Below are positions 656 through 15,578 of a stretch of 15,578 bases of DNA, piece after piece. This DNA comes from a virus (taxonomy: Duplodnaviria > Heunggongvirae > Uroviricota > Caudoviricetes), in IMG/VR virus record IMGVR_UViG_2534682222_000014, positions 1 to 15,578 of that record. One strand, written 5' to 3'. The translations under genes were made by a program, and so were the position numbers. The notes under the pieces are model-generated. The model was not told the DNA's origin. It saw nothing but the letters and a program-made list of their open reading frames with translations, and did not search any database. The first letter of the stretch is position 1. Each line of letters starts with the position of its first letter.

Positions 656-700
656 TTAGCCCCCTCTTTATTGCTGTGAGTCCTCTCAGAACGAGGGGAA

Positions 701-725
701 TAAAAAAGGCCACCATCTGGTGACC
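701..725 (-). terminator. Intrinsic terminator downstream of the moron gene (leftward transcription)
   Basis: On the minus strand: GGUCACC-AGAU-GGUGGCC stem (7 bp with one G-U pair) followed by UUUUUU. Lies between the moron stop (744) and the holin-like start (655). Confidence 0.5.
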
Positions 726-743
726 TTCGTTAATTTTGAGTTG

Positions 744-1280: not shown

Positions 1281-1290
1281 ACTATCACCA

Positions 1291-1316
1291 TAAAAAAACC
1301 CCACCGAGGTGAGGTT
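1291..1316 (-). terminator. Intrinsic terminator, candidate tR' of the late operon
   Basis: Minus-strand CCUCACC-UCGG-UGGGG hairpin followed by UUUUUUU (plus-strand A-run 1292-1298), about 90 nt downstream of the Q stop and immediately before the moron RBS. Confidence 0.55.
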
Positions 1317-1332
1317 ATCATAGTGATCGATA

Positions 1333-1387
1333 GTTATACAAAGCCCATCATTGATGTCAAATATACACAAATACGGCAACATTGCAA
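1333..1387 (-). promoter_or_regulatory. Candidate late promoter (pR'-like) between Q and the terminator
   Basis: Minus strand reads TTGCAA-16 bp-TATATT (plus 1387-1382 and 1365-1360); an overlapping alternative is TTGACA-16 bp-TATAAC (plus 1360-1355 and 1338-1333). Sigma70-like hexamers seen by eye; which one is used is not established. Confidence 0.3.
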
Positions 1388-1403
1388 ACATCATGACGCT
1401 AAA

Positions 1404-2234: not shown

Positions 2235-2250
2235 ACGGTCTCCATACTTC

Positions 2251-3246
2251 TTAAGCTGTCGCAATTACGCCGATCGCCAGTGCTCGATCAATAAAACGCA
2301 GTAGCAGCTCAAGCTGCGTACCATGCTTCTGCTCGAATGCTGGTACATCGGCGTGTAACTCGTCGTGGCACTCTCTGCACAGAGGGATCACGAAGAGGTC
2401 ATGGGCTTTTGTTGCTGTACCACCCATACCGTGCCCTACGATATGGTGCGGATCATCTGCTGGCCGTCGGCAACACTCACAGGGTTGTGTTTTAACCCAG
2501 CGGGTGTACGTCTCATTTATCCAGCGGCGACGTTTTGGCCTGAGCATAAAAGACTCTGGCGACTCCGGATCAACAGAGAGCGTGAGGATCTTCTTCGCCT
2601 TCTCCTGCACGAGTCTGGTTGCTGACGAGGAAGGCACTATGTCGCTTTCCCTCATGACAGAACGGATCTTCTCATCCGGAAGGCGCAACCCTTTGTGCGC
2701 AACGCTTTCCGGAATAACATCAGCCAGGTCGTTTCTGACCATCCACCAGCACAGTTCAGGAAGCGTCAGGATATGCGACTCGGGAAAACCAGAATCACGC
2801 CGAATGACTTCCAGAATCCAGGATACCAGGTTTCCGGCCGCTATACCTGCAAGCTGTTCGGTATGCTGCCCCGACAAAGTGTGATCGCAATGCCAGCACA
2901 GGCGAATACTTCCTGGTGGGTGCCGCATTGTTGTGAAGTTCTTGTCGTGCCACGTTGAATGTGGCCACTGGCATTCAAACCGATTACTCAACCATTGCTC
3001 AAGGGAAGGAAGCCCACCGGCACGCTGAATAACCCTCTCATTCTCGAAGACCTGACGCATTACCGGATCATCAGCTAGCGGCTGAATGGCTGCCGGAACA
3101 GCCCCGGTACTGAATGACGCCATTTCTTCTGGTTCAGGCTCGAGCAGAACGCGACCACGCATGAAGAGGTGCATCAGTTCCGTACCGGGACGGAACAGCA
3201 CAATCCCCATACGATGGGCGATCTCGGGGGTAAGCAGAGCTCTCAC
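2251..3246 (-). CDS. YdfU-like DUF968 family prophage protein with C-terminal HNH-like Cys/His motif
   Basis: C-terminus PCECCRR...HHIVGHGMGG...IPLCRECHDELH is a zinc-finger/HNH-like signature recalled from YdfU/DUF968 proteins. Start uncertain: GTG at 3246 overlaps the Rha stop as GTGA with AGGGGG 9 nt upstream; the alternative GTG at 3279 gives 342 aa. Confidence 0.5.
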   Translation of the reverse strand: MRALLTPEIAHRMGIVLFRPGTELMHLFMRGRVLLEPEPEEMASFSTGAVPAAIQPLADDPVMRQVFENERVIQRAGGLPSLEQWLSNRFECQWPHSTWHDKNFTTMRHPPGSIRLCWHCDHTLSGQHTEQLAGIAAGNLVSWILEVIRRDSGFPESHILTLPELCWWMVRNDLADVIPESVAHKGLRLPDEKIRSVMRESDIVPSSSATRLVQEKAKKILTLSVDPESPESFMLRPKRRRWINETYTRWVKTQPCECCRRPADDPHHIVGHGMGGTATKAHDLFVIPLCRECHDELHADVPAFEQKHGTQLELLLRFIDRALAIGVIATA

Positions 3247-3926
3247 GCGACCTGCCCCCTGGCAATGTGTTCTGCCCACAGTCCACCAATCCAGCGCACG
3301 CCTTTCGCCGTGAAACGTGCCTGGCTGAATGCATGATTTGAGGTTACGGATGTGCCGGTTTTCATTTCAAAACGGCCCGCATCAATATGCTGATGCCGTG
3401 GGGTCATCGTTCCGCCAAGGCGATACATGATGTCGTTCTCAAGGAGGAATAACCGCAGATCTGGCTCTTTGGCCTTAAGCAGTTTTGCCACCTGGCGGAA
3501 TGACATTGACCCACTGGCTGTACAGTACCGATCAACAAACGCTACCTTCGGCGCAGCGGCAGCCAGTTCGTTAGTCAACTGTTGTTTTTGTTCTGCAAGG
3601 TCAGCTGCAAGACGTAGGGCTTCAGAGAATGATTGAGGAATCGTCTGCTGCTGTGCCTGCTCAAGCTCCTGCCAGCGATCAACCAGACGCGCGGTAAACT
3701 CCGGCGACAGCTGCGCGACAACGATATAACTGTCCCGCTTCCCTATCAGATAAACCGATACCGACTGATTGAGGTGATTTTTAACTTCCCCCATTGGGGG
3801 GAGTTCAATAACACCGCGCTCTGCCAGGCGTTCAATGGACCGTTTAACATGGTCATGTCGTGATTCCACCAGCTCAGCAATATCGCTGCTGGACATGGTT
3901 AATGCTGTTGTTGCTAATTGGCTCAT
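3243..3926 (-). CDS. Rha-family phage regulatory protein / antirepressor (Rha N-domain plus KilA-C/ANT-like C-domain)
   Basis: ATG at 3926 preceded by GGAG 7 nt upstream (track ORF extends to 3965). N-terminal SDIAELVESRHDHVKRSIERL matches the Rha-domain signature; C-terminal half resembles antirepressor KilA-C domains. Confidence 0.7.
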   Translation of the reverse strand: MSQLATTALTMSSSDIAELVESRHDHVKRSIERLAERGVIELPPMGEVKNHLNQSVSVYLIGKRDSYIVVAQLSPEFTARLVDRWQELEQAQQQTIPQSFSEALRLAADLAEQKQQLTNELAAAAPKVAFVDRYCTASGSMSFRQVAKLLKAKEPDLRLFLLENDIMYRLGGTMTPRHQHIDAGRFEMKTGTSVTSNHAFSQARFTAKGVRWIGGLWAEHIARGQVA

Positions 3927-3939
3927 ACTTTTCTCCATA

Positions 3940-4326
3940 TCAGGCGGCTGCACCCGCCGGTTCATATCTGCTGATCGTTATCTCTACCCGACCTTTCGGC
4001 ACTACGGGTCCCCATTCCACCAGCATGCGCTTAATCTGGCTGTCGTCTTCCCAGACACCCGCATGCGTCAGCGCGTCAAACAGGGCTTTGTTGTAATTAT
4101 CGATATCCCGGCGGCGCGCATCCGGCGGGTACAGAGTGATTTCAACCGCTGCCAGTTCAGTCGATGGCTTCGGGAGACGTCGTAATTGCTCAATGATCGC
4201 CACGCAGGCAGCGCTCTGGTATTTACGACCATCAGCGCTAATGAGGTGACGACCGGCCAGCGGCCCCTTATTAGGGGCGCGCCAGTAAGTGTTCACGCTC
4301 GGAGGAAAAGGCAGGATCAGTTTCAC
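3940..4326 (-). CDS. rusA: RusA-type Holliday-junction resolvase
   Basis: 128 aa, N-terminus KLILPFPPSVNTYW and acidic DIDNYNKALFDALTHAGVWEDD match RusA. GTG start overlaps the upstream stop as GTGA with GGGGAGAGG 4 nt upstream. Confidence 0.85.
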   Translation of the reverse strand: MKLILPFPPSVNTYWRAPNKGPLAGRHLISADGRKYQSAACVAIIEQLRRLPKPSTELAAVEITLYPPDARRRDIDNYNKALFDALTHAGVWEDDSQIKRMLVEWGPVVPKGRVEITISRYEPAGAAA

Positions 4327-5642
4327 GCGGCCTCTCCCCGCATATTGCGAACAAGTTCAGAAGCGGCAGTAATGATTTCGCTGGTGGCCGTTCGTTCCAG
4401 CCAGAGTTGATTGATGTTGGCTTTCAGCTTGTTCTGCTGTGATTCATCCAACATGTCAGCGCCATCTACCTGGTTGAACACAATCCCAACCTCCAGTGGC
4501 CAGATACGGGACTCGGGAAGCGGATCCGCTACTGGTTTAGCTTTCTCACGGATGTGCATGCGGATCTGGCGAATATTGGACCATCTGGAAACATCCAGGC
4601 TTCCCATGGCTGCAATGAAATCAGTGCTGTTCATGCCATATTCACCGGATGCTTCAAGGGCAACAGTGCGAATACGTTCCGACATATCCAGGCGCACTGC
4701 AGCGTCATCGAATTCAATCGACAACAACCACTCATCCACACCGAACAAAATACTCTCACGAATAAGCAGCTTCGCTTTGTCGATCGTTAATGGTGATACC
4801 TGAGTGAATTCCGGTGCTTCAACAGAATCCGCCGCCCAGGTATGCCCAAACTTCGATTCACTGAATGTGTATTCTTCTTTATCGCCAAACGCAGCTCTAA
4901 CGCATGCCCACGCCTCGACGCCGCTGACATCAAAAATATCTTTCTGAGTGAGTGGCAACTCAGCTTCTGGCTTATCAGCTGCAGGAGGTGTGGCAGTTGC
5001 AGGTTGAGACTTGCTGGCAGCAAATTGCGCCAAAGTCATAAACGCCCGCCCTTTTGCCTCCAGTTCTGTGCGGTTGATATAGCTGAACCGCTCAACACGC
5101 CACGACTTATCGAATACAGCTATGGCACCGGCAAAAAACGCGCTGGTGGGTTTCTGTTTTTCGTCAGCAGGTACAAACCACACAGGCAGATCGAACCCAA
5201 TACGACCACGAATGAATACAATGTGATCGGCATCTTCTGGCCACCACGTTTCACTCGGCGCGGCTTTTATCAGGAATACATAGCGACCGCCCTTCTCGCG
5301 CTGGGCTGCTGCGTAGTTCATGATATGCGTCATGCCGGTGATCGCCTGCTTCTCGTGGTACTGCGAACGGCTATACGGAGGGTTGCCATAACCAGCGCCG
5401 CCCAGTTCTGCCAGACGTTCAGACCAGTGCTGTGTCAGCGCGTTATCTTCGGCGGTGTACCATGCCGGGCACTTCGCGTTGTCGTCGTCAGCAAACAAGT
5501 CCAGAGCTAATGGACCAAATAGCGCGTTGATCCCCCAAAAAAGCAGATCCGGTGTCCGCCACTGATCGCCAACTTCTTTCAATTCGTGAGCTGGTTTGCT
5601 ACGCAGTGCCGCCAGCGCCTGGCAATATTTATTGGTCATCAT
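4323..5642 (-). CDS. Phage Dam-type N6-adenine DNA methyltransferase fused to a roughly 220-aa C-terminal domain of unknown function
   Basis: 439 aa. N-terminal half contains LDLFADDDN and the catalytic NPPY motif of N6-adenine MTases. C-terminal half (from about residue 215) has no motif I can assign. Start ATG overlaps the stop of the upstream initiator gene as ATGA. Confidence 0.7.
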   Translation of the reverse strand: MMTNKYCQALAALRSKPAHELKEVGDQWRTPDLLFWGINALFGPLALDLFADDDNAKCPAWYTAEDNALTQHWSERLAELGGAGYGNPPYSRSQYHEKQAITGMTHIMNYAAAQREKGGRYVFLIKAAPSETWWPEDADHIVFIRGRIGFDLPVWFVPADEKQKPTSAFFAGAIAVFDKSWRVERFSYINRTELEAKGRAFMTLAQFAASKSQPATATPPAADKPEAELPLTQKDIFDVSGVEAWACVRAAFGDKEEYTFSESKFGHTWAADSVEAPEFTQVSPLTIDKAKLLIRESILFGVDEWLLSIEFDDAAVRLDMSERIRTVALEASGEYGMNSTDFIAAMGSLDVSRWSNIRQIRMHIREKAKPVADPLPESRIWPLEVGIVFNQVDGADMLDESQQNKLKANINQLWLERTATSEIITAASELVRNMRGEAA

Positions 5643-6505
5643 GAACGGAACCCCGAATTTTCTGGCAGTGAGTAATCAACACTCTGGAAGTTTGCGCGGC
5701 TGGCTGAGTTAGTCTCCCATTTGCCGTTAACGCGTTCAGGCCGGCCAGCACTGGACCATTTGGTCGCGCTTTGCAGGTAACCAGGGAAGTTTTTTGGAAT
5801 GAACAGAGTTGCCGGGCGGAGGTATTGCGCCTGCTCGCTATCACGCCAATCGGCATTTTTGTAATCCACTACCAAGCACAGGTCATCAACAGTGAATTGT
5901 TCCCGAAGACGGGCGCGAATATTCTCCAGCGACGTGCTGCATACCTGGTAGCGTGAGCCAGTAGTCTGATTCAGGTAAGACAAAACCTGTCTGGCCTGAT
6001 CAGTAATCACAACCTCAGGGTCGGGTTGCGCCGCAACCGGACAAGAGGGTTTTGAAGTTACTTGTGGATCTTGTTTTGATTTTACTGACGGATCCCCGCC
6101 AGATTCTGACGGGTCAAAACCATCGTTTTTGCCAGATTTCGACGGGTCAGTTTTTGAGGCGTCAAATTTTGATGCGTCAGATTTTGACGTGTCAGAATCT
6201 GACAGTTGAGAAAATGCGGCAGTCTGAAGTTTCGCCACATTCAGCCGATACACGTTCGAAGCATTACGGTTACCATTACGGCGCTGTGTACGTGTGAGCC
6301 AGCCATCTTTTTCAAGCTTTGCGATTGCCGTTCTGATAGTGCTCGGGCCTGCGCCAAGCTGGCGAGCAATAGTTTCAATTGACGGCCAGCACACACCTTC
6401 ATCGCTGCTGAAGTCAGCAAGGCGAGCCATGATCGCAACACTGGACAACTTCATGCCCGACGCTGCGCAACCATCCCATACGTAGCCGGTTAATTTAGTG
6501 CTCAT
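5639..6505 (-). CDS. Replication initiation protein (O-like; N-terminal HTH, repeat linker, conserved phage C-terminal domain)
   Basis: 288 aa. N-terminal winged-helix-like region (PSIETIARQLGAGPSTIRTAIAKLEKDGWL), low-complexity S/K/D linker with 5-aa periodicity, and a C-terminal domain of the conserved-phage-C-terminus replisome-organiser type. Sits where lambda O lies, downstream of cro/cII. Confidence 0.7.
   Translation of the reverse strand: MSTKLTGYVWDGCAASGMKLSSVAIMARLADFSSDEGVCWPSIETIARQLGAGPSTIRTAIAKLEKDGWLTRTQRRNGNRNASNVYRLNVAKLQTAAFSQLSDSDTSKSDASKFDASKTDPSKSGKNDGFDPSESGGDPSVKSKQDPQVTSKPSCPVAAQPDPEVVITDQARQVLSYLNQTTGSRYQVCSTSLENIRARLREQFTVDDLCLVVDYKNADWRDSEQAQYLRPATLFIPKNFPGYLQSATKWSSAGRPERVNGKWETNSASRANFQSVDYSLPENSGFRS
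6087..6205. repeat. Iteron-like direct repeat array (candidate replication origin) inside the initiator gene
   Basis: Four in-phase tandem 15-mers at 6141-6200 (gacgggtcagttttt, gaggcgtcaaatttt, gatgcgtcagatttt, gacgtgtcagaatct), further copies at 6108-6122 and 6201-6205, and a weaker one at 6087-6101. They encode the SKxDx linker repeats. Confidence 0.6.
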
Positions 6506-6674
6506 GATCGTCCGTTATCTCCCTGAACTTTTGCCTGAAATGCTCAAGTGGGCTGAAGCATTCGTGTGGATAGCCATCTCGCAGGTAGATAACGCGCTGT
6601 GTTTCTGGCTCCCAGCGGATAACACGGACTGGCACTCCGCGGTGATCTTTGAACCTTCGGTTAAGTTCGCGCAC
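6495..6674 (-). CDS. Small hypothetical protein (59 aa), possibly DUF4222-like; overlaps the initiator start
   Basis: Below the track threshold, found by hand. GTG at 6674 with GGAGGG about 10 nt upstream; product VRELNRRFKDHRGVPVRVIRWEPETQRVIYLRDGYPHECFSPLEHFRQKFREITDDHEH; stop TAA 6495-6497 overlaps the O-like start by 11 nt. Family assignment is from memory only. Confidence 0.4.
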   Translation of the reverse strand: MRELNRRFKDHRGVPVRVIRWEPETQRVIYLRDGYPHECFSPLEHFRQKFREITDDHEH

Positions 6675-6846
6675 AGGCGTTTTGCCCTCCGATAGTAGAC
6701 CCCCACAATTACGGCAGCCTGGCTGTGGTTACATGACACCCAGCGATTTGATACTTTGCATTCATACCGAAACAGCGGAAGACCCGGCACCGGGATCATT
6801 CGTAGTTGCGGTAAGTGAGGATTTACGATTAAATTGCTCATGCGGA

Positions 6847-7398
6847 TTATTTCTCCATACTCGAAGAGTTGTTCGCCAAGGCGCCCGGAGCTGCACACTC
6901 GCGGGCGTCACTCTTTTCAGCGACACAAAAAACTCGGTAAAGCAGCGTGACGTGCTCCTGAAACTTCGCGATCACCTGGTAGCTGTTCTCCTCTATCTGA
7001 GCACGCTCATCTGCGTCAATCACCCCATCAGCAGTAGCCTTTCGCACAAAGGTAGAATGACGACCAATCCATTCAATGGACTCCATCAGGCGCTGGTTAA
7101 TATCGGCGTTATCCAAATCATCAACATCTGCCAGCGGTACGAATACGCCTTGAGAATGGCGCGCAACGGCATCAGCAATATGAGTCGAACCACCAGCACG
7201 CTGTAGAACCATCGCCCAACCCAACGGGAATATCTGATCGCCCTCAGTGCGGAGACGGTTGAACAACCCGTTCTCTGAAGTTCCTAACCATTCCGCGGCC
7301 TCGGCATACCCACCAGGAAGGTCGGTAATGGTTTTTTTTATTGCGACCACCAGCCAGGCTGGCTGACGTTCGACTTTCCAACTAGGTTCATTACCCAC
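6847..7398 (-). CDS. CII-like phage regulatory protein (CP76-type) or YdaT-like protein
   Basis: 183 aa, GTG start with AAGGGGG 6 nt upstream, 23 bp downstream of the cro stop. Assignment rests mainly on position after cro plus general resemblance to the longer CII (CP76) family. Confidence 0.45.
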   Translation of the reverse strand: MGNEPSWKVERQPAWLVVAIKKTITDLPGGYAEAAEWLGTSENGLFNRLRTEGDQIFPLGWAMVLQRAGGSTHIADAVARHSQGVFVPLADVDDLDNADINQRLMESIEWIGRHSTFVRKATADGVIDADERAQIEENSYQVIAKFQEHVTLLYRVFCVAEKSDARECAAPGALANNSSSMEK

Positions 7399-7421
7399 GG
7401 CTAACCCCCTTGTCTCTGTGG

Positions 7422-7625
7422 TTACTGCTTGTGTTGAGAATTGTTAAGTTTGCTGTAGAGAGAAGCGTCGTATTTCAACTTCCCGTTCGTAATTCTTTCA
7501 ATGTAAAGAGCCTGTTTTTCTGGGATTACTTCACCCCATTGACATACGGCACTGTGAGTTACCCCTAAGGCAACTGCGGTTTTAGAAATGCCGCCGTAGT
7601 AGTCGACGACTGTCCCTTTATGCAT
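7422..7625 (-). CDS. cro: Cro-like repressor (P22 Cro type)
   Basis: 67 aa, ATG preceded by AGAGGA. HTH segment ISKTAVALGVTHSAVCQWGEVIPEK closely resembles P22-type Cro. Divergent from the cI-like gene across a 100-bp operator region. Confidence 0.7.
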   Translation of the reverse strand: MHKGTVVDYYGGISKTAVALGVTHSAVCQWGEVIPEKQALYIERITNGKLKYDASLYSKLNNSQHKQ

Positions 7626-7725
7626 GGTTTGAATCCTCTTTAGTTAGCATTCTTACATCGTATATGGACAGCATACTTACGTCAATAAAATGTAAGATTG
7701 CTAACGTACATTCCGAGGAGATTTT
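7626..7725. promoter_or_regulatory. Divergent oR-like operator/promoter region (pR for cro, pRM for cI)
   Basis: Minus strand: TTGACG -35 (plus 7685-7680) with TATACG/TACGAT -10 candidates upstream of cro. Plus strand: TGGACA (7665-7670) and TAAAAT (7686-7691) upstream of cI. Half-site CTTAC/GTAAG at 7652-7656, 7676-7680 and 7692-7696; 9-mer ATGTAAGAT at 7690-7698. Confidence 0.5.
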
Positions 7726-8358
7726 ATGGATACCGTTGGCAGCAGACTGAGATTTAGAAGAAAGCAGAAAAAACTTACCCAGCGCGATGTGGCTGAGTGG
7801 GCAGGAGTAAGCGCGTCTGCTGTGACCCAGTGGGAAAGTGATTTAACAAAACTTTCTGGTGAGAACTTGATATTGGTGTGTAAATGCCTTCAGTGCTCGC
7901 CAGAATGGTTGGTTTTTGGTTCAGGCGATATCGAAAATGGCATTAACATCAACTTGATGTCTGCCAGAGAGGTCCCTCTCATATCATGGGTGCAAGCTGG
8001 TAATTGGACGGAAGTAATTGGAAATCCTAATAATGAACAAGTGAAAACCACTCGAAAACTTTCTGATTCCGCCTTTGCTTTGAGGGTTAAGGGAGATTCA
8101 ATGACTTCTAGCCAGGAGTTGAGTATTCCTGAAGGTTCTATTGTTATTGTTGAACCAGAGTTCGGCTTCGTGGATGAGGCAAACGGTAAAATTGTCGTTG
8201 CTCAAACGGTATCTGGTGGTGAGGCAACTTTAAAAAAGCTGGCGATAGACCCACCGTTTTCGTACCTAATCCCACTGAATCCTGCGTTTAAACCCATTGA
8301 GGTGAATCAAGAGACCAATCTAATTGGGATAGTTAAACAAATTATCATTGACCTTTAG
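7726..8358 (+). CDS. cI: cI-type prophage repressor (N-terminal XRE HTH, C-terminal LexA-like S24 peptidase)
   Basis: 210 aa, GAGGAG RBS. HTH (LTQRDVAEWAGVSASAVTQWE), Ala-Gly cleavage site (VQAGNW), Ser nucleophile in KGDSM and Lys in ATLKKL, typical of RecA-stimulated autocleaving repressors. Confidence 0.85.
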   Translation: MDTVGSRLRFRRKQKKLTQRDVAEWAGVSASAVTQWESDLTKLSGENLILVCKCLQCSPEWLVFGSGDIENGININLMSAREVPLISWVQAGNWTEVIGNPNNEQVKTTRKLSDSAFALRVKGDSMTSSQELSIPEGSIVIVEPEFGFVDEANGKIVVAQTVSGGEATLKKLAIDPPFSYLIPLNPAFKPIEVNQETNLIGIVKQIIIDL

Positions 8359-8374
8359 CCCCTCTGGTTCCTAC

Positions 8375-8402
8375 AAGCCCGCTGATCATGCGGGCTTTTT
8401 TA
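8375..8402 (+). terminator. Intrinsic terminator directly after the repressor gene
   Basis: AAGCCCGC-TGATCAT-GCGGGCTT hairpin followed by TTTTT, 17 bp after the cI stop. Not followed by a U-run on the opposite strand, so rightward only. Confidence 0.7.
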
Positions 8403-8414
8403 TGCCTGTGAAAA

Positions 8415-8469
8415 TATAGTAAGCAAACTTACAAAATAGACTTGACTGTAAATGTAAGATGTCTAATAT
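8415..8469 (+). promoter_or_regulatory. pL-like early-left promoter with operator sites
   Basis: TTGACT (8442-8447), 16-bp spacer, TAATAT (8464-8469). Near-palindromic 18-mer TAGTAAGCAAACTTACAA at 8415-8432, and ATGTAAGAT at 8452-8460 inside the spacer, identical to the 9-mer in the oR region. Confidence 0.5.
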
Positions 8470-8505
8470 TAAATCCATCAGCAACGAACATTGTGGGCAT
8501 CAGGA

Positions 8506-8709
8506 ATGAAGATAGAGTTGGTTGTTAACGGGAAAATTACTGCTGAGTGCAGTGATGAATCGGAGTTTCTGGCATTCAATGCTGCCGTTTTTAGCGCTCT
8601 ATCGGACATGCAACTTACCCTTCATTCCGAACGAAGGGCTCGTTCAAAATCTAAAATGGCGGCCTTCAATGAGAAGTTTTTTAAAACGGATCCCACGGGT
8701 CGCAATTAA
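8506..8709 (+). CDS. Hypothetical small protein (67 aa) downstream of the pL-like promoter
   Basis: ATG at 8506 (track ORF starts at TTG 8491). AGGA lies immediately next to the ATG, so translation signals are weak. Internal basic patch HSERRARSKSK but no N-terminal Arg-rich motif, so not called N. Overlaps a convergent ORF. Confidence 0.3.
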   Translation: MKIELVVNGKITAECSDESEFLAFNAAVFSALSDMQLTLHSERRARSKSKMAAFNEKFFKTDPTGRN

Positions 8710-8914
8710 GAGAATCAAGAAGCTTAATGGTTTGATAGGTGATGGCTTCCTGTTTAACAGTGTTTTCTGGGCTTGACAGTTGATCGCGCAATAATTGTAT
8801 TTGGTTATGCAGGTCATCTGATAGTGGGCCCTCATTAGCACATATTGCAGCTGAAATGGTCTTAATCGCAGCTTCAATAGCAGTGAGTCTTAACTCAATA
8901 ATATCGTTATTCAT
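8681..8914 (-). CDS. Hypothetical small acidic helical protein (77 aa), convergent with and overlapping the previous ORF
   Basis: ATG at 8914 (MNNDIIELRLTAIEAAIKTISAAICANEGPLSDDLHNQIQLLRDQL...), embedded in a longer track ORF. Weak RBS. AT-rich. 3' end overlaps the plus-strand ORF by 29 bp. Confidence 0.3.
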   Translation of the reverse strand: MNNDIIELRLTAIEAAIKTISAAICANEGPLSDDLHNQIQLLRDQLSSPENTVKQEAITYQTIKLLDSLNCDPWDPF

Positions 8915-9183
8915 AGGTTTATCTTCTTGGCTGTGTGAGAACTCCAAGAATACCACCGAGCCTGATGTGGTGAAAAGACAGGCATAGCCCAGACGATATC
9001 TGAGTGGCTTAAAAAACAGATGGGAACCGGTGGAATCCCGGTACACAACGAAAAGAGCGCTGGCATGCAAAAAATATCTCGCAGCCGTAGCAGTACCAAA
9101 AGCCAGGATGGAACGGCAGAAACGCGGTAGTGCTCTTTTTGATGTGGTAAACCCGTAGTAGCTGTACCAGATGCTGTGTGTAG

Positions 9184-9258
9184 TCTTGGCGGTACCAGGG
9201 TCTTCAACCTTATGCAAGGGGGACGAAGATAATGTTCTACCTCGGTACCGCCCTTTTT
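9184..9258 (+). ncRNA. Long hairpin with 3' T-run; candidate terminator or processed sRNA with DicF-like ends
   Basis: Perfect 9-bp stem GGCGGTACC (9188-9196) / GGTACCGCC (9244-9252) enclosing a 47-nt loop with internal pairings (CCTT-ATGC-AAGG, TCTTC/GAAGA), followed by TTTTT (9254-9258). The 5' arm TTGGCGGTACCAG and the 3' CCGCCCTTTTT resemble my recollection of E. coli DicF. Not verified. Confidence 0.25.
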
Positions 9259-9444
9259 ACACAACAGACAAGGGCATCACCGGGCGACGGGCTCATAACC
9301 CAATCCACCCGGGCAAAAAGAAAGCGGTCTCTCAAGCCGCCGACCAATGCAGGTGCCCTTCTCTGTTGTGTATGGAGAAAGTTCGGCGGTGGCAGCCGCC
9401 TTAACTTCGTGTATGGACTAAAACCTTGTGCAGAGGAAAGTTAA

Positions 9445-10362
9445 ATGAAATTACCTAAGTTCCGTAACGCAATCGTGTACCGCGCCACACTACCTAGCAT
9501 TGAAGCTATCGAGGGGCATCTGCTTGAACTCCCCTACTCCGAGATTGGTGAAACTGAGTTTTCACGCGCCTCTTTTGTGCCAAACACGATCACTGGCGAA
9601 TTGGTCACCCCAATATCAGGTGGGTATGCCATCGTGATCCGCCATGATCAGAAAATCATTCCCCAGCATGTTGTTTTGAAGGAAGCCGCAGCACGGATCC
9701 AAAGAATCGAAGATATGTCCGGGAGTAAAATCAAACGTATCGAACGATTAGCAATTATCGACAGCGTCCGCGTTGACCTGTGTAAACGGGCATTTGTTAA
9801 ATCAACGCTGATCCTTGCGTTGTACAGCACCAACGAAAAGCTATTAGTGGTCAATACGACCAATAAAAATATTGCCGGTATGGCTGTGGCTATGCTGGTG
9901 AAAGTTGTCGGTTCCGTTAAAACAGAAACAATCAACATTAGCGATATTAAGAACGGTTTAACTACGCGGTTGAAAAACTATATCAATGGCGTGGCCAATG
10001 CTTTTGAAGGGTTTACCGTCGGCAATTATATCCAGCTGTCCCGCCTTGCCGATCAAAATGAAGTTATTCGCTACTCAGCTGAACACGACTCAATTCAAAG
10101 CGAGCTAGTTGATAGCCTTAATAGCGGCTTTACCGCTGATAAAATGGAGCTAGCAGGATGCGGTGTATCGTTCATCCTCACCGAAAATTTCCATTTTTCG
10201 CGCATCAATACCCAAGCCCAAACATTCAACGATGAAGATGATAAAGCATTTCAATGGCGCCATCAGGCCGGGACGGATCTACTCCAATTCAGCAAAGTAG
10301 TAAACCTGATGTGTGATCTTCTTTCGTACAAAGAAGAACAGCCACAAAAACCCGCAGCCTAA
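9445..10362 (+). CDS. rdgC: RdgC-like recombination-associated protein
   Basis: 305 aa, GAGGAAA RBS. N-terminal FRNAIVYR and GYAIVIRHDQKIIPQHVVLKEAAARIQRIE align by eye with E. coli RdgC ([37 protein letters not shown]); length matches. Confidence 0.65.
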   Translation: MKLPKFRNAIVYRATLPSIEAIEGHLLELPYSEIGETEFSRASFVPNTITGELVTPISGGYAIVIRHDQKIIPQHVVLKEAAARIQRIEDMSGSKIKRIERLAIIDSVRVDLCKRAFVKSTLILALYSTNEKLLVVNTTNKNIAGMAVAMLVKVVGSVKTETINISDIKNGLTTRLKNYINGVANAFEGFTVGNYIQLSRLADQNEVIRYSAEHDSIQSELVDSLNSGFTADKMELAGCGVSFILTENFHFSRINTQAQTFNDEDDKAFQWRHQAGTDLLQFSKVVNLMCDLLSYKEEQPQKPAA

Positions 10363-10469
10363 TACCCCAGACCGTAATTAACCCATGTCATGGGTTGGGT
10401 TGCTGCACGCTAAATTTAGCAATTCATTAATTTAATAGCGCGGTGCAGCGCGCCAATATGGAGAAAACC

Positions 10470-11009
10470 ATGAGCTACATTCAGACATTATCCGGCAAAC
10501 ATTTTAATTACCTCGATATCCAACAGGACGATATCGTGATCGAGGATATTGCTACCGCGTTGTCTCATATCTGCCGTTTTGCAGGGCATCTTCCTGAGTT
10601 TTATAGCGTCGGCCAGCATAGCGTTTTAACCAGCCACCTCGTTCCGCAGGAGTTTGCATTAGAAGCACTGCTTCATGATGCTGCTGAAGCCTACCTGCAG
10701 GACATCCCATCCCCGCTTAAGCACCTGCTTCCGGATTACCAGGTGATCGAAGCTCGCGTGGATGCAGCCATTCGGCAGAAGTTCGGCCTACCGACGGAAC
10801 AACACCCAACTGTGAAATATGCCGATCTGGTGATGCTCGCCAGCGAACGCCGCGATTTTGAGGTTGACGAAGGTTCCGTGTGGCCATGCCTCGAGGGAGT
10901 TGTCCCAACGGATTTATTCATTATCAATCCAGTTCGTCCTGGCCAGTCATACGGCATGTTCATCAATCGCTTTAACGAATTGATGGAGCAGCGCCAATGC
11001 GCCGCATGA
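10470..11009 (+). CDS. HD-domain phosphohydrolase (YfbR-like 5'-deoxynucleotidase family)
   Basis: Start ATG at 10470 with GGAG 6 nt upstream (track ORF begins at GTG 10443). H...HD metal-binding signature (SVGQHSVLTSHL ... EALLHDAAEAY). 179 aa. Confidence 0.6.
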   Translation: MSYIQTLSGKHFNYLDIQQDDIVIEDIATALSHICRFAGHLPEFYSVGQHSVLTSHLVPQEFALEALLHDAAEAYLQDIPSPLKHLLPDYQVIEARVDAAIRQKFGLPTEQHPTVKYADLVMLASERRDFEVDEGSVWPCLEGVVPTDLFIINPVRPGQSYGMFINRFNELMEQRQCAA

Positions 11010-11173
11010 AGGTAAAAGAACTCGTAGCGGAGGCGTTTGCCTCCGTTGCTGAATTGCCACCAAAGCATGCACCGCTTATGCGCGAAGTCGCCACCAGACT
11101 AGAAGCTACGTTCGCAGCATTAAAAGAGTCTCTGGTGCAACTGGAACAGGAACGTAAAGGTAAAACGCCATGA
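11006..11173 (+). CDS. Hypothetical small protein (55 aa), translationally coupled
   Basis: Below the track threshold, found by hand. ATG 11006 overlaps the upstream stop as ATGA and its own TGA overlaps the next ATG as ATGA. Product MKVKELVAEAFASVAELPPKHAPLMREVATRLEATFAALKESLVQLEQERKGKTP. No separate RBS. Confidence 0.4.
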   Translation: MKVKELVAEAFASVAELPPKHAPLMREVATRLEATFAALKESLVQLEQERKGKTP

Positions 11174-11424
11174 CCGTATTTGAATATCTCCAGGCTCATC
11201 CAAATACCACCAGCGGTGAAATCGCCAAAGGCATGAACAAAACGACGCCAGCGGTCGCCGGAGCATTATCGCAACTCTATGGCACAGGCCGGATCGTGAA
11301 GTCTGGTGTTCGCAAGGGCATTCCAACATACCGTGTTAACGATATGCCGTTTGGGTGCAGTAACAGCCTAACCATGATGTTTAACCAGCTATTGAATAGC
11401 GCCAGACAGGGAGCAGCCCAATGA
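11170..11424 (+). CDS. Hypothetical small protein, possible winged-helix DNA-binding fold
   Basis: 84 aa; TSGEIAKGMNKTTPAVAGALSQLYGTGRIV resembles a winged-helix recognition segment. Start and stop both overlap neighbours as ATGA. Confidence 0.45.
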   Translation: MTVFEYLQAHPNTTSGEIAKGMNKTTPAVAGALSQLYGTGRIVKSGVRKGIPTYRVNDMPFGCSNSLTMMFNQLLNSARQGAAQ

Positions 11425-11978
11425 AAGCACTCAACAAACAGGCGTTGCGTGAAGCGGACAATGCCGCAAACATAGCTTCATGGGGTAAATGGGAGTCGTA
11501 TAAGCCACACAAAGGCGCGAGAGGATATGAAGTAAAAGTTGGTGCAAAGGCGGTAGCTCAACACTGCCTTAAAGTTGATTCGGCATTCATCGCCGCCGCC
11601 AACCCGCCCACCGTACTGGCGCTGCTGGATGAGCTGGAAGCCGCAGAGAAGCGCAATGCTGAATTACAGAGAGAGAATGCATATATCTGCAACCGACACA
11701 AAGAACTGGACCTGTTAATCGGGAAGAACATTCTGGTCATGCAAGCTGCGATTATCGAATGGCAGGCAACTGGTGACGCTAAGAACGGGCTGTCATGGAT
11801 TTATAACACGCTGTTTGGGCCTGGTGAATTGCCTGACGAATCTGAGAAAGATGCTCAGGCCTACTTTGACCGCAAATATGCACCGATTGACGAAGAGCTT
11901 ATGGCGCTTCACAAGTGGTTTTGGGAACAAAGTGAAGCCGAACGTGCCGCCGCTGGCATTGGCGTGAAGGGGGAATGA
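11421..11978 (+). CDS. Ead/Ea22-like phage protein
   Basis: 185 aa; FIAAANPPTVLALLDELEAAEKRNAELQ matches the conserved motif I recall for the Ead/Ea22-like family; typical location in a lambdoid early-left region. Confidence 0.5.
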   Translation: MKALNKQALREADNAANIASWGKWESYKPHKGARGYEVKVGAKAVAQHCLKVDSAFIAAANPPTVLALLDELEAAEKRNAELQRENAYICNRHKELDLLIGKNILVMQAAIIEWQATGDAKNGLSWIYNTLFGPGELPDESEKDAQAYFDRKYAPIDEELMALHKWFWEQSEAERAAAGIGVKGE

Positions 11979-11979
11979 G

Positions 11980-12357
11980 ATGGCACTGACGAAAAAACAG
12001 CGTGCAGAACTGCGCATGAAGTTTGGCGGTCGCTGTGCTTATTGCGGCTGTGAACTTGGCGATAAGTGGCATGCAGACCATGTAGAAGCGGTACGAAGAA
12101 ATATCAGCAACGGCTACGCAATGGACAGGCCAGAAAATGACACGGTCAGCAACATGGTTCCAGCATGCATTCCATGCAACTTGTTCAAAATGTGCAGCAC
12201 AGTAGAAGACTTTCGCAGCCGCATAGCCACTCAGGTTGATGTAACTCGCCGTGCGTCAAGAAGTTACCGCACAGCGGAATCATTTGGCCTGGTTAAACAG
12301 ACTAACGCACCAGTTGTGTTCTGGTTCGAGCGGTATCAAGAGGGGGATAACTTGTGA
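11980..12357 (+). CDS. HNH endonuclease
   Basis: 125 aa, AAGGGGG RBS. CAYCG...WHADHV...PACIPCN zinc-binding HNH signature. Confidence 0.75.
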   Translation: MALTKKQRAELRMKFGGRCAYCGCELGDKWHADHVEAVRRNISNGYAMDRPENDTVSNMVPACIPCNLFKMCSTVEDFRSRIATQVDVTRRASRSYRTAESFGLVKQTNAPVVFWFERYQEGDNL

Positions 12358-12572
12358 CCAAAATATTCCTGAAGAATTATCCGCGCCAAAGCCGTGTTAA
12401 AGAGGCTCTATTTTTCCTTCTCTTTCTTATTTTAATGATTCCAATATCACCGATAGTCCTCATCTGGTTAGCAGGAGAACAGGCAGAAAAGATAGCTGAG
12501 TGGTATAGCTCCATCGTATGGGGGCCATTTAACAAACTGCACAACAAATTAAATCCGTACAGGGAGGACTAA
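12354..12572 (+). CDS. Small single-pass membrane protein (72 aa), hypothetical
   Basis: GTG start overlapping the HNH stop as GTGA, with AGGGGGA 6 nt upstream. Central hydrophobic helix ALFFLLFLILMIPISPIVLIWLA. Confidence 0.5.
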   Translation: MTKIFLKNYPRQSRVKEALFFLLFLILMIPISPIVLIWLAGEQAEKIAEWYSSIVWGPFNKLHNKLNPYRED

Positions 12573-12575
12573 CCC

Positions 12576-13358
12576 ATGACAACTAACAACCACCCGGCGC
12601 ACGGTCCTGTATCACTCGATCGCCTGCACCAGATAAGCGAAATACTCAGCAAAGCAGCAGCGCAAAGTGACGGCGGTAATCTCGGCTACGCAATGGCTGA
12701 TGCTGTCAAGGTGATTGATGAAGTCCTGAATGCTGAGCCTGTGCTTTATGCCGCTGAGGAAACTCTGGCTTATGCAAAGATGGGTGATCTTCACCTTAAG
12801 TGCCTGTCTCAGCCAATGGGAGATGCGGTAATTCCGCTCTACACTGCCACGCCAGCGCAGGTAGTGCCGGAGAATTGCGTAACAGCAGAACACCGTCGCG
12901 TTATTGAAATGCTGCTCAATGTTTGCTGGGCCGCATTCGAACTCGCAGATGATAGCTGTCAGCAAGATGTTGATGGCGAAGAGTGCCACGTTGTTCCAGA
13001 CGACGCATTTCAGAAGCTAAGTGATGCGCTGGACGAAATAGAAAACACTATCCCGACAGAAGATGTCGACAGGCCAGACGTATTCCTTGCCTGGTCGGCA
13101 ATGCCAAGGGCAGCGCTGAAATCTATTCTCCAGGCTGGCAACTCTCCGGTAACTCCGGATGACGTACTCCGCATGGACTGGCTGGTATCTAAAACCGTTG
13201 ATGTTCGTGAGCCTATGGTTTACGGAAGCCATAGCATTTTCTGGTCGCAGACCATCACGGATGAAGATGACGATTATCACGCGACCAAATTACGTGAGCA
13301 AATCGATGCAGCTATGGCAGCTGAGCAGGCAGCAGCACCGCAGCAGGAGAATGTATAA
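12576..13358 (+). CDS. Hypothetical acidic phage protein (260 aa)
   Basis: ATG at 12576 with AGGGAGGA 8 nt upstream; long ORF with coding-like composition; no motif I can assign. Confidence 0.55.
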   Translation: MTTNNHPAHGPVSLDRLHQISEILSKAAAQSDGGNLGYAMADAVKVIDEVLNAEPVLYAAEETLAYAKMGDLHLKCLSQPMGDAVIPLYTATPAQVVPENCVTAEHRRVIEMLLNVCWAAFELADDSCQQDVDGEECHVVPDDAFQKLSDALDEIENTIPTEDVDRPDVFLAWSAMPRAALKSILQAGNSPVTPDDVLRMDWLVSKTVDVREPMVYGSHSIFWSQTITDEDDDYHATKLREQIDAAMAAEQAAAPQQENV

Positions 13359-13359
13359 C

Positions 13360-13929
13360 GTGAACAATTTAATGATCGACCTCGAATCCATGGGCAAAAA
13401 ACCAAATGCCCCTATCGTCTCCATAGGTGCCGTGTTCTTCGATCCGCAAAGCGGTGAACTGGGTCAGGAGTTTTACAGCGCCGTTAACCTTGAAAGCGCT
13501 ATGGAGCAGGGAGCGGTGCCGGACGGTGACACTATTCTGTGGTGGTTAAGACAAAGCTCAGAAGCACGATCAGCAATCTGTGTTGATGATGCGATGCCGA
13601 TATCATCTGCCCTATCTGAACTGAGCCATTTCATTAATCGGCATTCTGATAACCCTAAATATTTAAAAGTTTGGGGCAATGGAGCTACTTTCGACAACGT
13701 TATATTGCGCGGCGCATATGAGCGTGCCGGCCAGGTTTGCCCGTGGCAATTTTGGAATGATCACGACGTCAGAACCATCGTCACATTAGGCAGAGTTGTA
13801 GGTTTCGATCCTAAGCGTGATATGCCATTTGATGGGGTTGCACATAACGCACTGGCTGATGCCCGCCACCAGGCGAAATATGTTTCAGCGATTTGGCAGA
13901 AACTAATCCCAACCACCAGCAACAACTAA
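13360..13929 (+). CDS. DEDDh-type 3'-5' exonuclease (DnaQ-like fold)
   Basis: Motifs MIDLESMG (D-x-E), WGNGATFDNVIL (Asp) and HNALADARHQ (His, Asp). Start ambiguous: ATG 13351 (AGGAGA directly adjacent), GTG 13360 (about 10 nt spacing, chosen) or ATG 13372. Track ORF extends upstream to 13159 in the same frame, overlapping the previous gene. Confidence 0.65.
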   Translation: MNNLMIDLESMGKKPNAPIVSIGAVFFDPQSGELGQEFYSAVNLESAMEQGAVPDGDTILWWLRQSSEARSAICVDDAMPISSALSELSHFINRHSDNPKYLKVWGNGATFDNVILRGAYERAGQVCPWQFWNDHDVRTIVTLGRVVGFDPKRDMPFDGVAHNALADARHQAKYVSAIWQKLIPTTSNN

Positions 13930-13969
13930 AATTTTCCCCGGGTGCAGCCGGGATAATGGAGAAATAACT

Positions 13970-14206
13970 ATGAGCAATATTTTCCAGTTAGCTCCCAACG
14001 ATTGGGTTTGTGAAAGCGTTCTGATCGCGGTTACCGGGCTCAAACCCGGAACCATCACCCGTGCCAGAAAAGAATGCTGGATGATTGGGAGGGAGTATAT
14101 CCACGTATCGCCTGACGGAAATCCCAAACCTTCCAGTGAGTGCATGTATAACAGAAAGGCTGTAGATGCCTGGGTCGCTTCAATGAAAAGCAAGCAGCCA
14201 GGGTGA
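13970..14206 (+). CDS. xis: Excisionase-like protein
   Basis: 78 aa, GGAG 8 nt upstream, immediately upstream of int in the same orientation. Small basic protein resembling prophage excisionase-like proteins; assignment partly positional. Confidence 0.6.
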   Translation: MSNIFQLAPNDWVCESVLIAVTGLKPGTITRARKECWMIGREYIHVSPDGNPKPSSECMYNRKAVDAWVASMKSKQPG

Positions 14207-14264
14207 TTTGATGCCATGAAAAAGGTAAGCTCGTATCGCTCTTGGGCGTCTGGAGGTAACACCA

Positions 14265-15578
14265 ATGGATAAAGTCACATATCCAACAGGCGTCGAAAAC
14301 CACGGTGGCACATTACGCATCTGGTTTAATTTTAAAGGTAAGCGTGTCAGGGAAAGTCTCGGTGTCCCTGACACCGCTAAGAACAGAAAGGTAGCCGGGG
14401 AACTGCGGACATCAGTATGTTTTGCCATCCGCACAGGAACCTTTGATTATGCAACCCAGTTTCCTGACTCCCCTAACCTCAAGGCTTTTGGTGTAAGTAA
14501 AAAAGACATTACAGTGAAAGAACTTGAAGAAAAATGGCTGGATCTGAAACGGATGGAAATCTGCGCGAACGCATTCAATCGCTATGAATCTGTCGCAAGG
14601 AATATGGTGCCGAGGATCGGAGGTAATCGCCTGGTGTCAGCAGTAACCAAAGAGGAATTGCTGTATCTTAGGAAAGATTTGCTAACTGGTTATCAGAGTC
14701 CGACGAAAAATAAAGCCCCGGCAAAAGGGCGAAGCGTTGTTACTGTGAACTATTACATGACGACAATGGCCGGAATGTTTCAGTTTGCTGCGGATCACGG
14801 TTACTTAGAGGTGAACCCATTCGAGGGAATTAAACCTCTGAAAAAAGCCAGGGCAGAACCAGATCCTCTGTCTCGTGATGAATTTATTCGCCTGATAGAT
14901 GCATGCCGGCATCAGCAGACGAAAAACCTGTGGTCATTAGCAGTGTACACAGGAATGCGTCACGGGGAACTGGTCTCCCTGGCCTGGGAAGATATCGACC
15001 TGAAGGCGGGAACAATTACCGTCAGGCGTAATTATACGAAACTTGGTGAGTTCACTCTACCGAAAACCGAGGCAAGTACAGATCGAGTGGTGCATCTTAT
15101 CCAGCCCGCAATCAGTATCCTGAAAAATCAGGCTGAAATGACAAGGCTGGGCAGGCAATATCACATTGAAGTGCAGTTACGTGAGTACGGTCGTTCGGTG
15201 AACCATGAGTGTACATTCGTCTTTAACCCGCATGTGGTCAGACGCAGTAAGCAGGTCGGATTTATCTACCGGGTCGATTCAGTAGGCGACTCATGGGAAG
15301 CTGCACTAAAGCGCGCGGGGATCAGACACAGAAAGGCGTACCAGTCACGACATACCTATGCGTGCTGGTCATTATCTGCTGGTGCAAACCCGAGTTTTAT
15401 TGCCAGTCAGATGGGGCATGCGAGCGCGCAGATGGTGTTCAATGTTTACGGTGCATGGATGGCTGACAGCAGCGCAGAGCAGATCGCAATGCTGAATCAG
15501 AAGCTGGCAGATTTTGCCCCATTGATGCCCCATAGCCACGAGAGCAGTACGGGAGGATTATTAAAATCAGTAAGTTAA
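14265..15578 (+). CDS. int: Tyrosine site-specific integrase (IntR/DLP12-type N-terminal arm-binding domain)
   Basis: 437 aa, GGAGGT RBS. N-terminus TGVENHGGTLRIWFNFKGKRVRESLG...GTFDYATQFPDS matches Rac/DLP12-type integrases. C-terminal catalytic region shows R...HxxR...Y-context (RHTYACW, GHASAQMVFNVYGAW). Stop TAA at 15576-15578. Confidence 0.9.
   Translation: MDKVTYPTGVENHGGTLRIWFNFKGKRVRESLGVPDTAKNRKVAGELRTSVCFAIRTGTFDYATQFPDSPNLKAFGVSKKDITVKELEEKWLDLKRMEICANAFNRYESVARNMVPRIGGNRLVSAVTKEELLYLRKDLLTGYQSPTKNKAPAKGRSVVTVNYYMTTMAGMFQFAADHGYLEVNPFEGIKPLKKARAEPDPLSRDEFIRLIDACRHQQTKNLWSLAVYTGMRHGELVSLAWEDIDLKAGTITVRRNYTKLGEFTLPKTEASTDRVVHLIQPAISILKNQAEMTRLGRQYHIEVQLREYGRSVNHECTFVFNPHVVRRSKQVGFIYRVDSVGDSWEAALKRAGIRHRKAYQSRHTYACWSLSAGANPSFIASQMGHASAQMVFNVYGAWMADSSAEQIAMLNQKLADFAPLMPHSHESSTGGLLKSVS

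Follow-up and report, generated by a model that had tools for sequence, protein, structure and literature searches.

A Predicted Terminator Hairpin with a dicF-Type Scaffold and a Conserved Interior in the Early-Left Leader of a Lambdoid Prophage

We analyzed a 15,578-nucleotide (nt) stretch of viral DNA (Caudoviricetes; IMG/VR record IMGVR_UViG_2534682222_000014, positions 1 to 15,578), hereafter called the window, and in particular a long hairpin at 9184-9258 whose ends resemble those of the prophage small RNA (sRNA) DicF. The reading that we favor, with a probability of about 0.65, is that this hairpin is a plus-strand Rho-independent terminator or attenuator in the early-left leader between a cI-like repressor gene and rdgC, carrying the dicF scaffold around a different, conserved interior. 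More than 100 loci, spread over at least 12 Enterobacterales genera, have this element with a covarying structure. The class that they form, here called the long form, is uncatalogued, being absent from Rfam, genome annotation, and the accessible literature.

Structure of the Hairpin

The outer stem is a perfect 9 bp duplex between the 5' arm GGCGGTACC (9188-9196) and the 3' arm GGTACCGCC (9244-9252). It contains the palindrome GGTACC, encloses 47 nt (9197-9243), and is followed by C9253 and by TTTTT at 9254-9258. An earlier reading of the letters alone (the sequence-only reading) had described the GGTACC stem, a structured 47 nt loop, and the CTTTTT tail, all of which were read directly in the sequence; the span that it gave, 9184-9258, comprises the hairpin plus TCTT at its left end. 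That reading was silent on three points set out below, namely that the interior is a conserved module, that the hairpin belongs to a discrete and widespread class, and that it is one of three tandem hairpins in a conserved leader.

Folding of the plus-strand RNA 9175-9265 gave a minimum free energy (MFE) of -37.3 kcal/mol, compared with -22.8 +/- 3.1 kcal/mol for 200 dinucleotide shuffles (z = -4.64), none of which folded as well as the native sequence. The 47 nt interior is itself structured in the MFE fold: an inner helix pairs 9200-9205 with 9225-9230, CCUU at 9208-9211 pairs with GGGG at 9219-9222, and the nine bases AAUGUUCUA (9231-9239) on the 3' side of the interior are left unpaired. 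The positions of these parts are as follows.

9186-9257, plus strand: extent of the match to the long-form covariance model R1, covering the whole element (78.6 bits, the sole match in the window)
9188-9196, plus strand: 5' arm of the outer stem, GGCGGTACC, read directly and in the fold; TTGGCGGT is the conserved 5' word of the family
9197-9199, plus strand: outer-stem extension AGG, paired in the MFE fold with CCU at 9240-9242 with C9243 bulged; covarying columns in alignments A1 and A3
9200-9205, plus strand: 5' strand of the inner helix, GUCUUC, from the fold and the alignments; conserved box TCTTC[A/C]
9216-9223, plus strand: Shine-Dalgarno (SD)-like purine box AAGGGGGA (most relatives have GGAGG), paired in part with CCUU at 9208-9211 (fold and alignments)
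9225-9230, plus strand: 3' strand of the inner helix, GAAGAU (fold and pair counts)
9231-9239, plus strand: nearly invariant unpaired AAUGUUCUA with ATG at 9232-9234, about 8 nt past the purine box (columns of A1 and A3; fold)
9232-9444, plus strand: 70-codon open reading frame (ORF) from the loop ATG, its stop immediately before the rdgC ATG (9445); judged incidental
9244-9252, plus strand: 3' arm of the outer stem, GGTACCGCC, read directly and in the fold
9253-9258, plus strand: C and T5 tail, the predicted terminator U-run and a possible Hfq site, identical in sequence to the DicF tail

As expected of an intrinsic terminator, a GC-rich stem is followed immediately by a U-run on the transcribed strand. 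The hairpin was not in the list produced by a simple terminator scan of the window because that scan permits only loops of 3-8 nt. Two further features were considered and rejected. Pairing of the flanks into a lower stem (GUGUGUA/UACACAA) was seen in the fold and is not conserved among relatives, because the 5' and 3' flanks reassort independently. A promoter within the element, with GATAAT as its -10 hexamer, was discarded since, on both strands, its distance to any -35-like hexamer is 19-22 nt or less favorable.

The Long Form Is a Discrete Class

Long-form members share, from 5' to 3', a covarying outer-stem extension, TCTTC[A/C], a variable apical stretch, the purine box GGAGG or GGGGG, GAAGAUAAUGUUCU, the 3' arm, and C-U4-5. 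All features of the class modeled by R1 can be read directly in the window, including the outer stem, the GUCUUC/GAAGAU helix, the purine box, AAUGUUCU, and the C-U run. R1, whose seed alignment includes the window sequence itself, scored the window at 78.6 bits, short forms at 25-36 bits, and DicF at 22.6 bits.

Across 37 diverse relatives, 91.2% of the cells of the outer stem were paired, as against 37-61% when the partners were slid; double-change cells numbered 48 versus 16 +/- 4 in shuffles, and seven pairs showed compensatory changes. The inner helix (pairs 17-22 x 48-53 of alignment A3) was 91% paired, with U-A/U-G changes only, and the unpaired AAUGUUCU, which contains the start codon, was nearly invariant. 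G.U pairs outnumbered A.C pairs by 80 to 13, indicating that selection acts on the plus-strand RNA; the paired share was 91% when the sequences were read as plus-strand RNA, 81% as minus-strand RNA, and 79% as DNA.

The inner module is confined to DicF-type arms: all 46 IMG/VR matches found through the module alone lay within such arms, and every one of them carried the T-run tail CCGCCCTTTT, which the search did not require. Since the module never occurred outside DicF-type arms, the idea that it is a mobile element inserted independently into a terminator loop was rejected.

Among phages, the long form was found in Salmonella ST64B, 118970_sal3, and F1055 and in Klebsiella Kp4866-6. The ST64B copy has the basal arms GTCGGCG/CGCCGAC and a GTG start, and both ST64B and SfV keep T5 despite their differing arms. 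Seventeen species-representative genomes carry the long form, in Citrobacter, Pantoea, Erwinia, Sodalis, Brenneria, Mixta, Shimwellia, Buttiauxella, Trabulsiella, Dryocola, Acerihabitans, and other genera. It is rare in complete E. coli genomes, where two variants were present in 2 and 7 of 5,426 genomes versus 3,969 of 5,426 for DicF, and it was never annotated in those that carry it. No Rfam family covered the long form or its neighbors in 12 loci.

A pair of genes encoding a YfdP-like protein (about 120 amino acids, aa) and a DUF2303/YfdQ-like protein (about 270 aa) lies directly after the leader in 80 of 112 long-form loci (for example, L241 2720-3976), compared with 5 of 54 short-form and 0 of 59 DicF loci. 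In the window (9445-11009) and in 17 other loci, rdgC takes this slot ahead of the same YfbR-like nucleotidase gene, suggesting that RdgC and the YfdP/YfdQ pair are alternative modules. The pair was accordingly rejected as a required partner of the long form, and because the window has rdgC there, we read the association as lineage or module linkage.

The Purine Box and the Loop Start Codon

The combination of an SD-like box and a start codon recalls the bar minigenes of lambda (SD, AUG, one sense codon, and stop); as such a minigene, the inner module would sequester peptidyl-tRNA when expressed, or park a ribosome on the hairpin. Minigenes of two codons are documented in lambda pL transcripts, the shortest being the most active (PMC2490762 and the bar work cited there), and a strong SD with a very short ORF in a pL transcript is what most long-form members present: outside the window's subgroup, the majority have GGAGG, a 9 nt spacer, and AUG-UUC-UGA, often overlapping as UGAUG, and many read nothing beyond AUG-UUC-UGA. 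The long form differs from bar in its UUC codon, where bar has AUA, and in being sited in a terminator hairpin. The window copy, however, is not a two-codon ORF; it reads AUG UUC UAC CUC ... through 70 codons with no early stop, as do about a dozen related variants. Nor is the start codon universal, being replaced by ACG, ATA, or GAG in 6 of 32 distinct members. A minigene function is thus unlikely, although it fares best among the alternatives. Across the long form, conservation is stronger for GUUCU than for AUG, as would fit sequence-specific recognition better than simple coding.

A Modular Family with Exchangeable Interiors

Homology around the hairpin is mosaic, with breakpoints that fall in the arms. 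Phage mEp390 matches the window over 9143-9193 and diverges thereafter, that is, within the 5' arm, while in about 300 E. coli prophages the match begins only at 9244, where the 3' arm starts, in a block over 9244-9314. Beyond its window-like 5' flank, mEp390 has the arms GGCGGTCG/CGACCGCC around 23 nt. It may be at these conserved arms that lambdoid modules are joined by recombination.

Pattern scans of IMG/VR for TTGGCGGT...CCGCCCYTTT retrieved more than 200 loci, which fell into three groups by interior: canonical DicF, other short forms of 21-29 nt, and the long form of 52-57 nt, to which the window's sequence belongs. Short-form loops are often C/U-rich and anti-SD-like. The 5' flanks, 3' flanks, and interiors reassort freely among loci, as in the hybrids L028, with a 5' flank of the window type and a 3' flank of the dicF type, and L056, which has the window's flanks around a short interior. 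A repressor gene on the same strand within 2.5 kb upstream was found at 52 of 59 long-form, 24 of 47 short-form, and 31 of 52 canonical DicF loci. The curated family is narrow: the Rfam DicF model rejected all 11 non-canonical short forms scored with it. Faubladier and Bouche (J Bacteriol 176:1150, 1994), as cited for example in PMC2681065, reportedly described "dicF-like" prophage terminator sequences, and the short-interior family fits that description.

This mosaicism, with homology ending at 9193 or starting at 9244 inside the hairpin and with flanks and interiors reassorting, is also what would be seen if the palindrome were a DNA-level "linker" for recombination or protein binding rather than an RNA element. 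The excess of G.U over A.C pairs shows pairing kept in the plus-strand RNA, however, and the T-run is one-sided; recombination in the arms is compatible with an RNA function and probably a by-product of it. We regard a role at the DNA level as improbable.

Other observations were made in the related loci. Two short-form hairpins (L009 52-212 and L020 7107-7268, with the interiors GATGGTTTCCCTTGAAGGACTATCA and GGCAGTTATTCCCTTTCTGACCA) adjoin tRNA genes and have no repressor gene nearby. They could be counterparts of late-region prophage sRNAs such as PasA/PasC, in which the seed reportedly overlaps the terminator stem. Other phage RNAs were also present, namely a C4 antisense RNA beside isrK (L169 5734-5919) and two STnc100 copies (L008 210-712).

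The ORF Starting in the Loop

Because the ATG at 9232 lies 8 nt after AAGGGGGA and opens a 70-codon ORF that matches phrog_33599 (E = 2e-12), ending at 9444 directly before rdgC at 9445, the hairpin might instead be the translational operator of a real small gene coupled to rdgC. ST64B has a comparable arrangement, a 50-codon ORF from the equivalent GTG with its stop 10 nt before sb37. A coding gene would keep its frame and length among relatives; here the ORF has 70, 60, 57, 53, 51, 36, 10, 4, or 2 codons, the frame in which the same stretch of downstream DNA is read changes, and starts such as ACG, ATA, and GAG occur. Of 88 distinct loci, only 17 have the end of the leader ORF between -4 and +20 nt from the next gene, and the median gap is 151 nt. 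The conservation of the downstream DNA is explained by the covarying 19 bp stem that forms there. Because its lengths, frames, starts, and distance to the next gene all vary, the loop ORF is probably incidental, the conserved entity apparently being the RNA module, and phrog_33599 is probably an artefact of gene calling on a conserved, structured, non-coding leader. Both a 70-aa protein and a translational coupling to the next gene were rejected on these grounds, and a translational operator of such a gene has little to recommend it.

Relationship to DicF

The sequence-only reading had compared the hairpin with the ends of DicF and suggested either an sRNA variant of the DicF family or no more than a tL-type terminator ending the early-left transcript. 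The DicF ends that it gave are correct, a 58 nt DicF with GTTTGGCGGTATCAG...GCCGCCCTTTTT being 100% identical to thousands of E. coli genomes, and the window shares TTGGCGGTA.CAG and CCGCCCTTTTT with DicF. The covariance search that it proposed went against DicF itself. With cmsearch and the Rfam DicF model (RF00039), the best match in the window lay exactly here (9175-9253, plus strand, in a permissive search) and reached 16.6 bits (E = 1.2), against a gathering score of 48; the alignment covers the stem ends only, with 51 nt inserted versus 23 in the model. The canonical DicF locus L006, used as a positive control, scored 76.7 bits. At the gathering threshold, Rfam reported nothing in the whole window, isrK and the other models included. 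The permissive search also gave chance matches to FMN, JPX, and snoRNAs; the FMN riboswitch match at 8967-9044 (17.9 bits versus a gathering score of 66.2, E = 0.23, partial model) was judged to be among these.

DicF acts on ftsZ via its 3' part (PMC5069750). Whole-molecule RNAduplex returned long spurious duplexes with ftsZ for every sequence and was replaced by a search for near-contiguous pairing with DicF as the positive control, in which the pairing of DicF nt 25-36 with ftsZ -12..-1 was recovered. The window hairpin, which had been expected to pair with ftsZ if it were a DicF variant, showed no pairing near the ftsZ ribosome-binding site (RBS); its best match, 7 nt at -41..-35, was worse than 99.8% of its own shuffles.

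In several respects, the two elements are alike. DicF of the Qin/Kim prophage has the same basal stem GGCGG/CCGCC, preceding UU, C-U5 tail, and CAG after the 5' arm. It lies downstream of the repressor in an operon transcribed from the immunity region of a lambdoid prophage and also serves as an internal Rho-independent terminator, as is predicted for the window hairpin, which occupies the same kind of position and has the same GGCGG...CCGCC-C-U5 end in sequence. Both are followed immediately by a double-stranded RNA stem, of about 20 bp in DicF and with 19 nt arms (9258-9276/9354-9372) in the window, and hybrid elements connect the two types. DicF is, in contrast, an RNA of about 53 nt with a hairpin around some 23 nt, whereas the window has 47 nt of unrelated sequence between its arms; the sequence that pairs with ftsZ and pykA is absent from the window, the 5' tail differs, and DicF lacks the SD-like box, the start codon, and the invariant GUUCU bulge.

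Given the RF00039 score below threshold, the lack of complementarity to the ftsZ RBS, and the unrelated interior, the window hairpin is, as judged from its sequence, not DicF. A true orthologue, that is, a trans-acting sRNA repressing ftsZ (and pykA and xylR) by pairing, is very improbable: its similar ends, its immunity-operon location, and the weak Rfam match speak for it, but that match covers the ends only, the nt 25-36 that pair with the ftsZ SD are missing, and the 5' single-stranded part is unlike the xylR-pairing end of DicF. What stands of the proposed DicF variant is the resemblance, which is real in the shared arms, tail, position, abutting stem, and intermediates. On the comparisons made here, this likeness reflects common descent of a terminator scaffold, of which canonical DicF is one interior among several. 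The tL-type terminator that had been offered as the alternative has gained ground, since orientation, position, and the conserved T-run all point to it. That the hairpin is a chance or generic terminator unrelated to DicF or any family is scarcely credible, for although GC-clamped U-run hairpins are common and E = 1.2 is unremarkable alone, the fold stands at z = -4.6, the covariation extends over more than 100 loci and at least 12 genera, the module occurs only within the arms, and hybrids lead to dicF.

Genomic Setting

A prophage in E. coli NZ_LR536430.1 matches the window with 100% identity and has no annotation over the hairpin. It contains a lambdoid immunity region with a gene order like that of e14, ST64B, and SfV; the minus strand carries replication genes, a YmfL/CII-like gene, and a P22-type Cro. 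The features around the hairpin are listed below.

7726-8358, plus strand: cI-like repressor gene with S24 and helix-turn-helix (HTH) domains
8375-8397: terminator of the repressor (cI)
8442-8469, plus strand: pL-like promoter (TTGACT, 16 nt, TAATAT), a consensus match only and the candidate source of the transcript that includes the hairpin
9044-9146, plus strand: upstream long hairpin with arms 9044-9061/9129-9146 (CACAAC.../...GATGTG), a possible 5' processing site of an RNA with its 3' end at the terminator; same layout in mEp390
9258-9372, plus strand: long hairpin abutting the T-run, with 19 nt arms 9258-9276/9354-9372 that are 95% complementary; putative RNase III site
9445-10362, plus strand: rdgC, with further early-left genes after it

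Between the pL-like promoter and the hairpin lies a conserved 77-aa gene on the minus strand (8681-8914, WP_001058060.1), which matches phrog_28250, a family without an assigned function, over its full length (E = 3e-39). Some 270 nt of non-coding DNA separate it from the hairpin, whose T-run is on the strand of the early-left operon (plus) only. This gene overlaps the 3' end of a 67-codon plus-strand ORF (8506-8709), which contains an Arg-rich stretch and has no family match.

As the first strong hairpin with a U-run on the leftward early transcript, upstream of recombination genes, the element resembles the tL1-type terminators of lambda; it differs from them in being far longer and in its conserved inner module, no nut site was identified here, and no N-type antiterminator was recognized in this phage group using Pfam, PHROGs, and NCBIfam. 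The boxA-like GTGCTCTTTTTGA at 9131-9143 was considered as a nut-type site and rejected, because it is the 3' strand of the long hairpin 9044-9146, as the similar GTGCCCTTCTC at 9356 is likewise a strand of a long hairpin.

Neighboring Long Hairpins

An inverted-repeat search placed the terminator hairpin in the middle of three tandem long hairpins, the others having the arms 9044-9061/9129-9146 and 9258-9276/9354-9372. The latter begins at the last T of the T-run and is the counterpart of the 22-23 bp stem that follows canonical dicF. A stem of 19-23 bp directly after the T-run was present, in addition to the window, at 23 of 23 distinct dicF, 22 of 65 long-form, and 26 of 46 short-form loci; stems in shuffled controls had a median of 8 bp and a maximum of 12 bp. 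The same layout of hairpins was found in mEp390, ST64B, SfV, and Kp4866-6, where the stem sequences differ yet remain self-complementary.

At the dicF loci (for example, L006 and L095), the stem is an inverted repeat of 22-23 bp, AAAGTGAATTTTGTGATGCGGTG ... about 110 nt ... CACCGCATCACAAAATTCATTGT, beginning 1-3 nt past DicF at all 23 distinct loci. DicF exists as a terminated 53 nt form and an RNase III-generated 72 nt form (PMC5069750, PMC9438474). The stem, which is not described in the accessible literature, is probably the RNase III substrate behind the 72 nt form; it fits that species because the 3' end of the latter lies about 19 nt beyond the terminator. By analogy, the 19 bp stem in the window is likely to be an RNase III site.

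The two long stems of the window have the same design, with arms of 18-19 nt that start with CACAAC... and end with ...GTTGTG/GATGTG. The stem at 9044-9146 is preceded by a small CCGG hairpin (9026-9042) and that at 9258-9372 by the DicF-type terminator, so a "hairpin + long stem" module seems to have been duplicated in tandem. A further small, conserved hairpin, GGCGG-TGGCAG-CCGCC at 9385-9400, whose arms repeat the GGCGG/CCGCC of the terminator, precedes the rdgC RBS about 45 nt upstream of the rdgC start; the same small hairpin occurs before sb37 in ST64B, in Kp4866-6, and in mEp390.

Proposed Mechanism

On the basis of the consensus match and the gene order, rightward transcripts would start at the pL-like promoter (8442-8469). 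The GC-rich stem and C-U5 tail would then halt a fraction of them at about 9258, leaving an RNA with a 72 nt hairpin at its 3' end, as expected from DicF, for which the literature describes termination in vivo at an identical stem base and tail. Read-through RNA would enter rdgC, and cleavage by RNase III of the 19 bp stem that begins at the last U, as described for the 72 nt DicF, could separate the two parts. The ORF-free leader of about 800 nt around the ST64B element suits an attenuator.

What is conserved while the stem covaries is a purine-rich, SD-like box held by a C/U-rich strand and a start codon in an invariant 9-10 nt bulge. Bulge and box may be recognized by the 30S subunit or by a protein, whose binding would tune the stability of the hairpin and, with it, the balance between termination and read-through or the lifetime of the RNA. 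In its fuller version, which we offer only tentatively, the long form would be a riboregulator within a modular family of early-left terminators, in which binding of the 30S subunit or a protein to the sequestered SD and the bulge AUG decides between termination, read-through, and decay.

Several observations weigh against the terminator-attenuator reading. The loop of an intrinsic terminator is typically compact, a few nt; the 47 nt structured interior is atypical and may slow closure of the basal stem. A promoter scan detected no plus-strand promoter other than that at 8442-8469, and it is not certain that pL transcripts reach the hairpin because the antisense 77-aa gene intervenes. The loss of the start codon in 6 of 32 members, with GUUCU better kept, favors sequence-specific recognition over plain translation. 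Finally, most loci were retrieved with a pattern that included the arms and tail, an ascertainment effect only partly offset by the T5 of ST64B and SfV beside differing arms and by the 46 loci found via the inner module alone.

Regulatory RNAs that arise as by-products of early termination are known from other prophages, such as StxS from termination at PR' (PMC7547250), and IsrK of Gifsy-1 likewise combines a short terminated form with a long read-through mRNA from one promoter (PMC7380047). StxS, IsrK, and the Pas sRNAs belong to other sequence families and operons, the Pas sRNAs being encoded in the late region.

Significance

For 35 years, DicF has been studied as a singular, E. coli-specific prophage sRNA. 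The Rfam DicF model recognizes only near-identical copies, and no DicF-like matches in phage genomes were reported (PMC5069750, 2016). Our analysis gives DicF an evolutionary context, since its scaffold, position, and post-terminator stem are widespread in Enterobacterales prophages. The free exchange of interiors predicts many uncharacterized terminator-derived RNAs with different specificities. Even if the element is only a terminator, annotation would improve, as the ORFs called over the leader, phrog_33599 included, are probably not genes.

In the long form, an RBS-like site and a start codon are conserved inside a predicted intrinsic terminator, in phages without a known early antitermination mechanism, and ST64B, a genetically tractable Salmonella prophage, carries it, so that the question is open to experiment. 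If the riboregulator reading were true, lambdoid phages without an N/nut system would possess an attenuator that senses translation initiation, and DicF would be merely the best-known member of a family of prophage terminator RNAs whose loops are swapped like cassettes.

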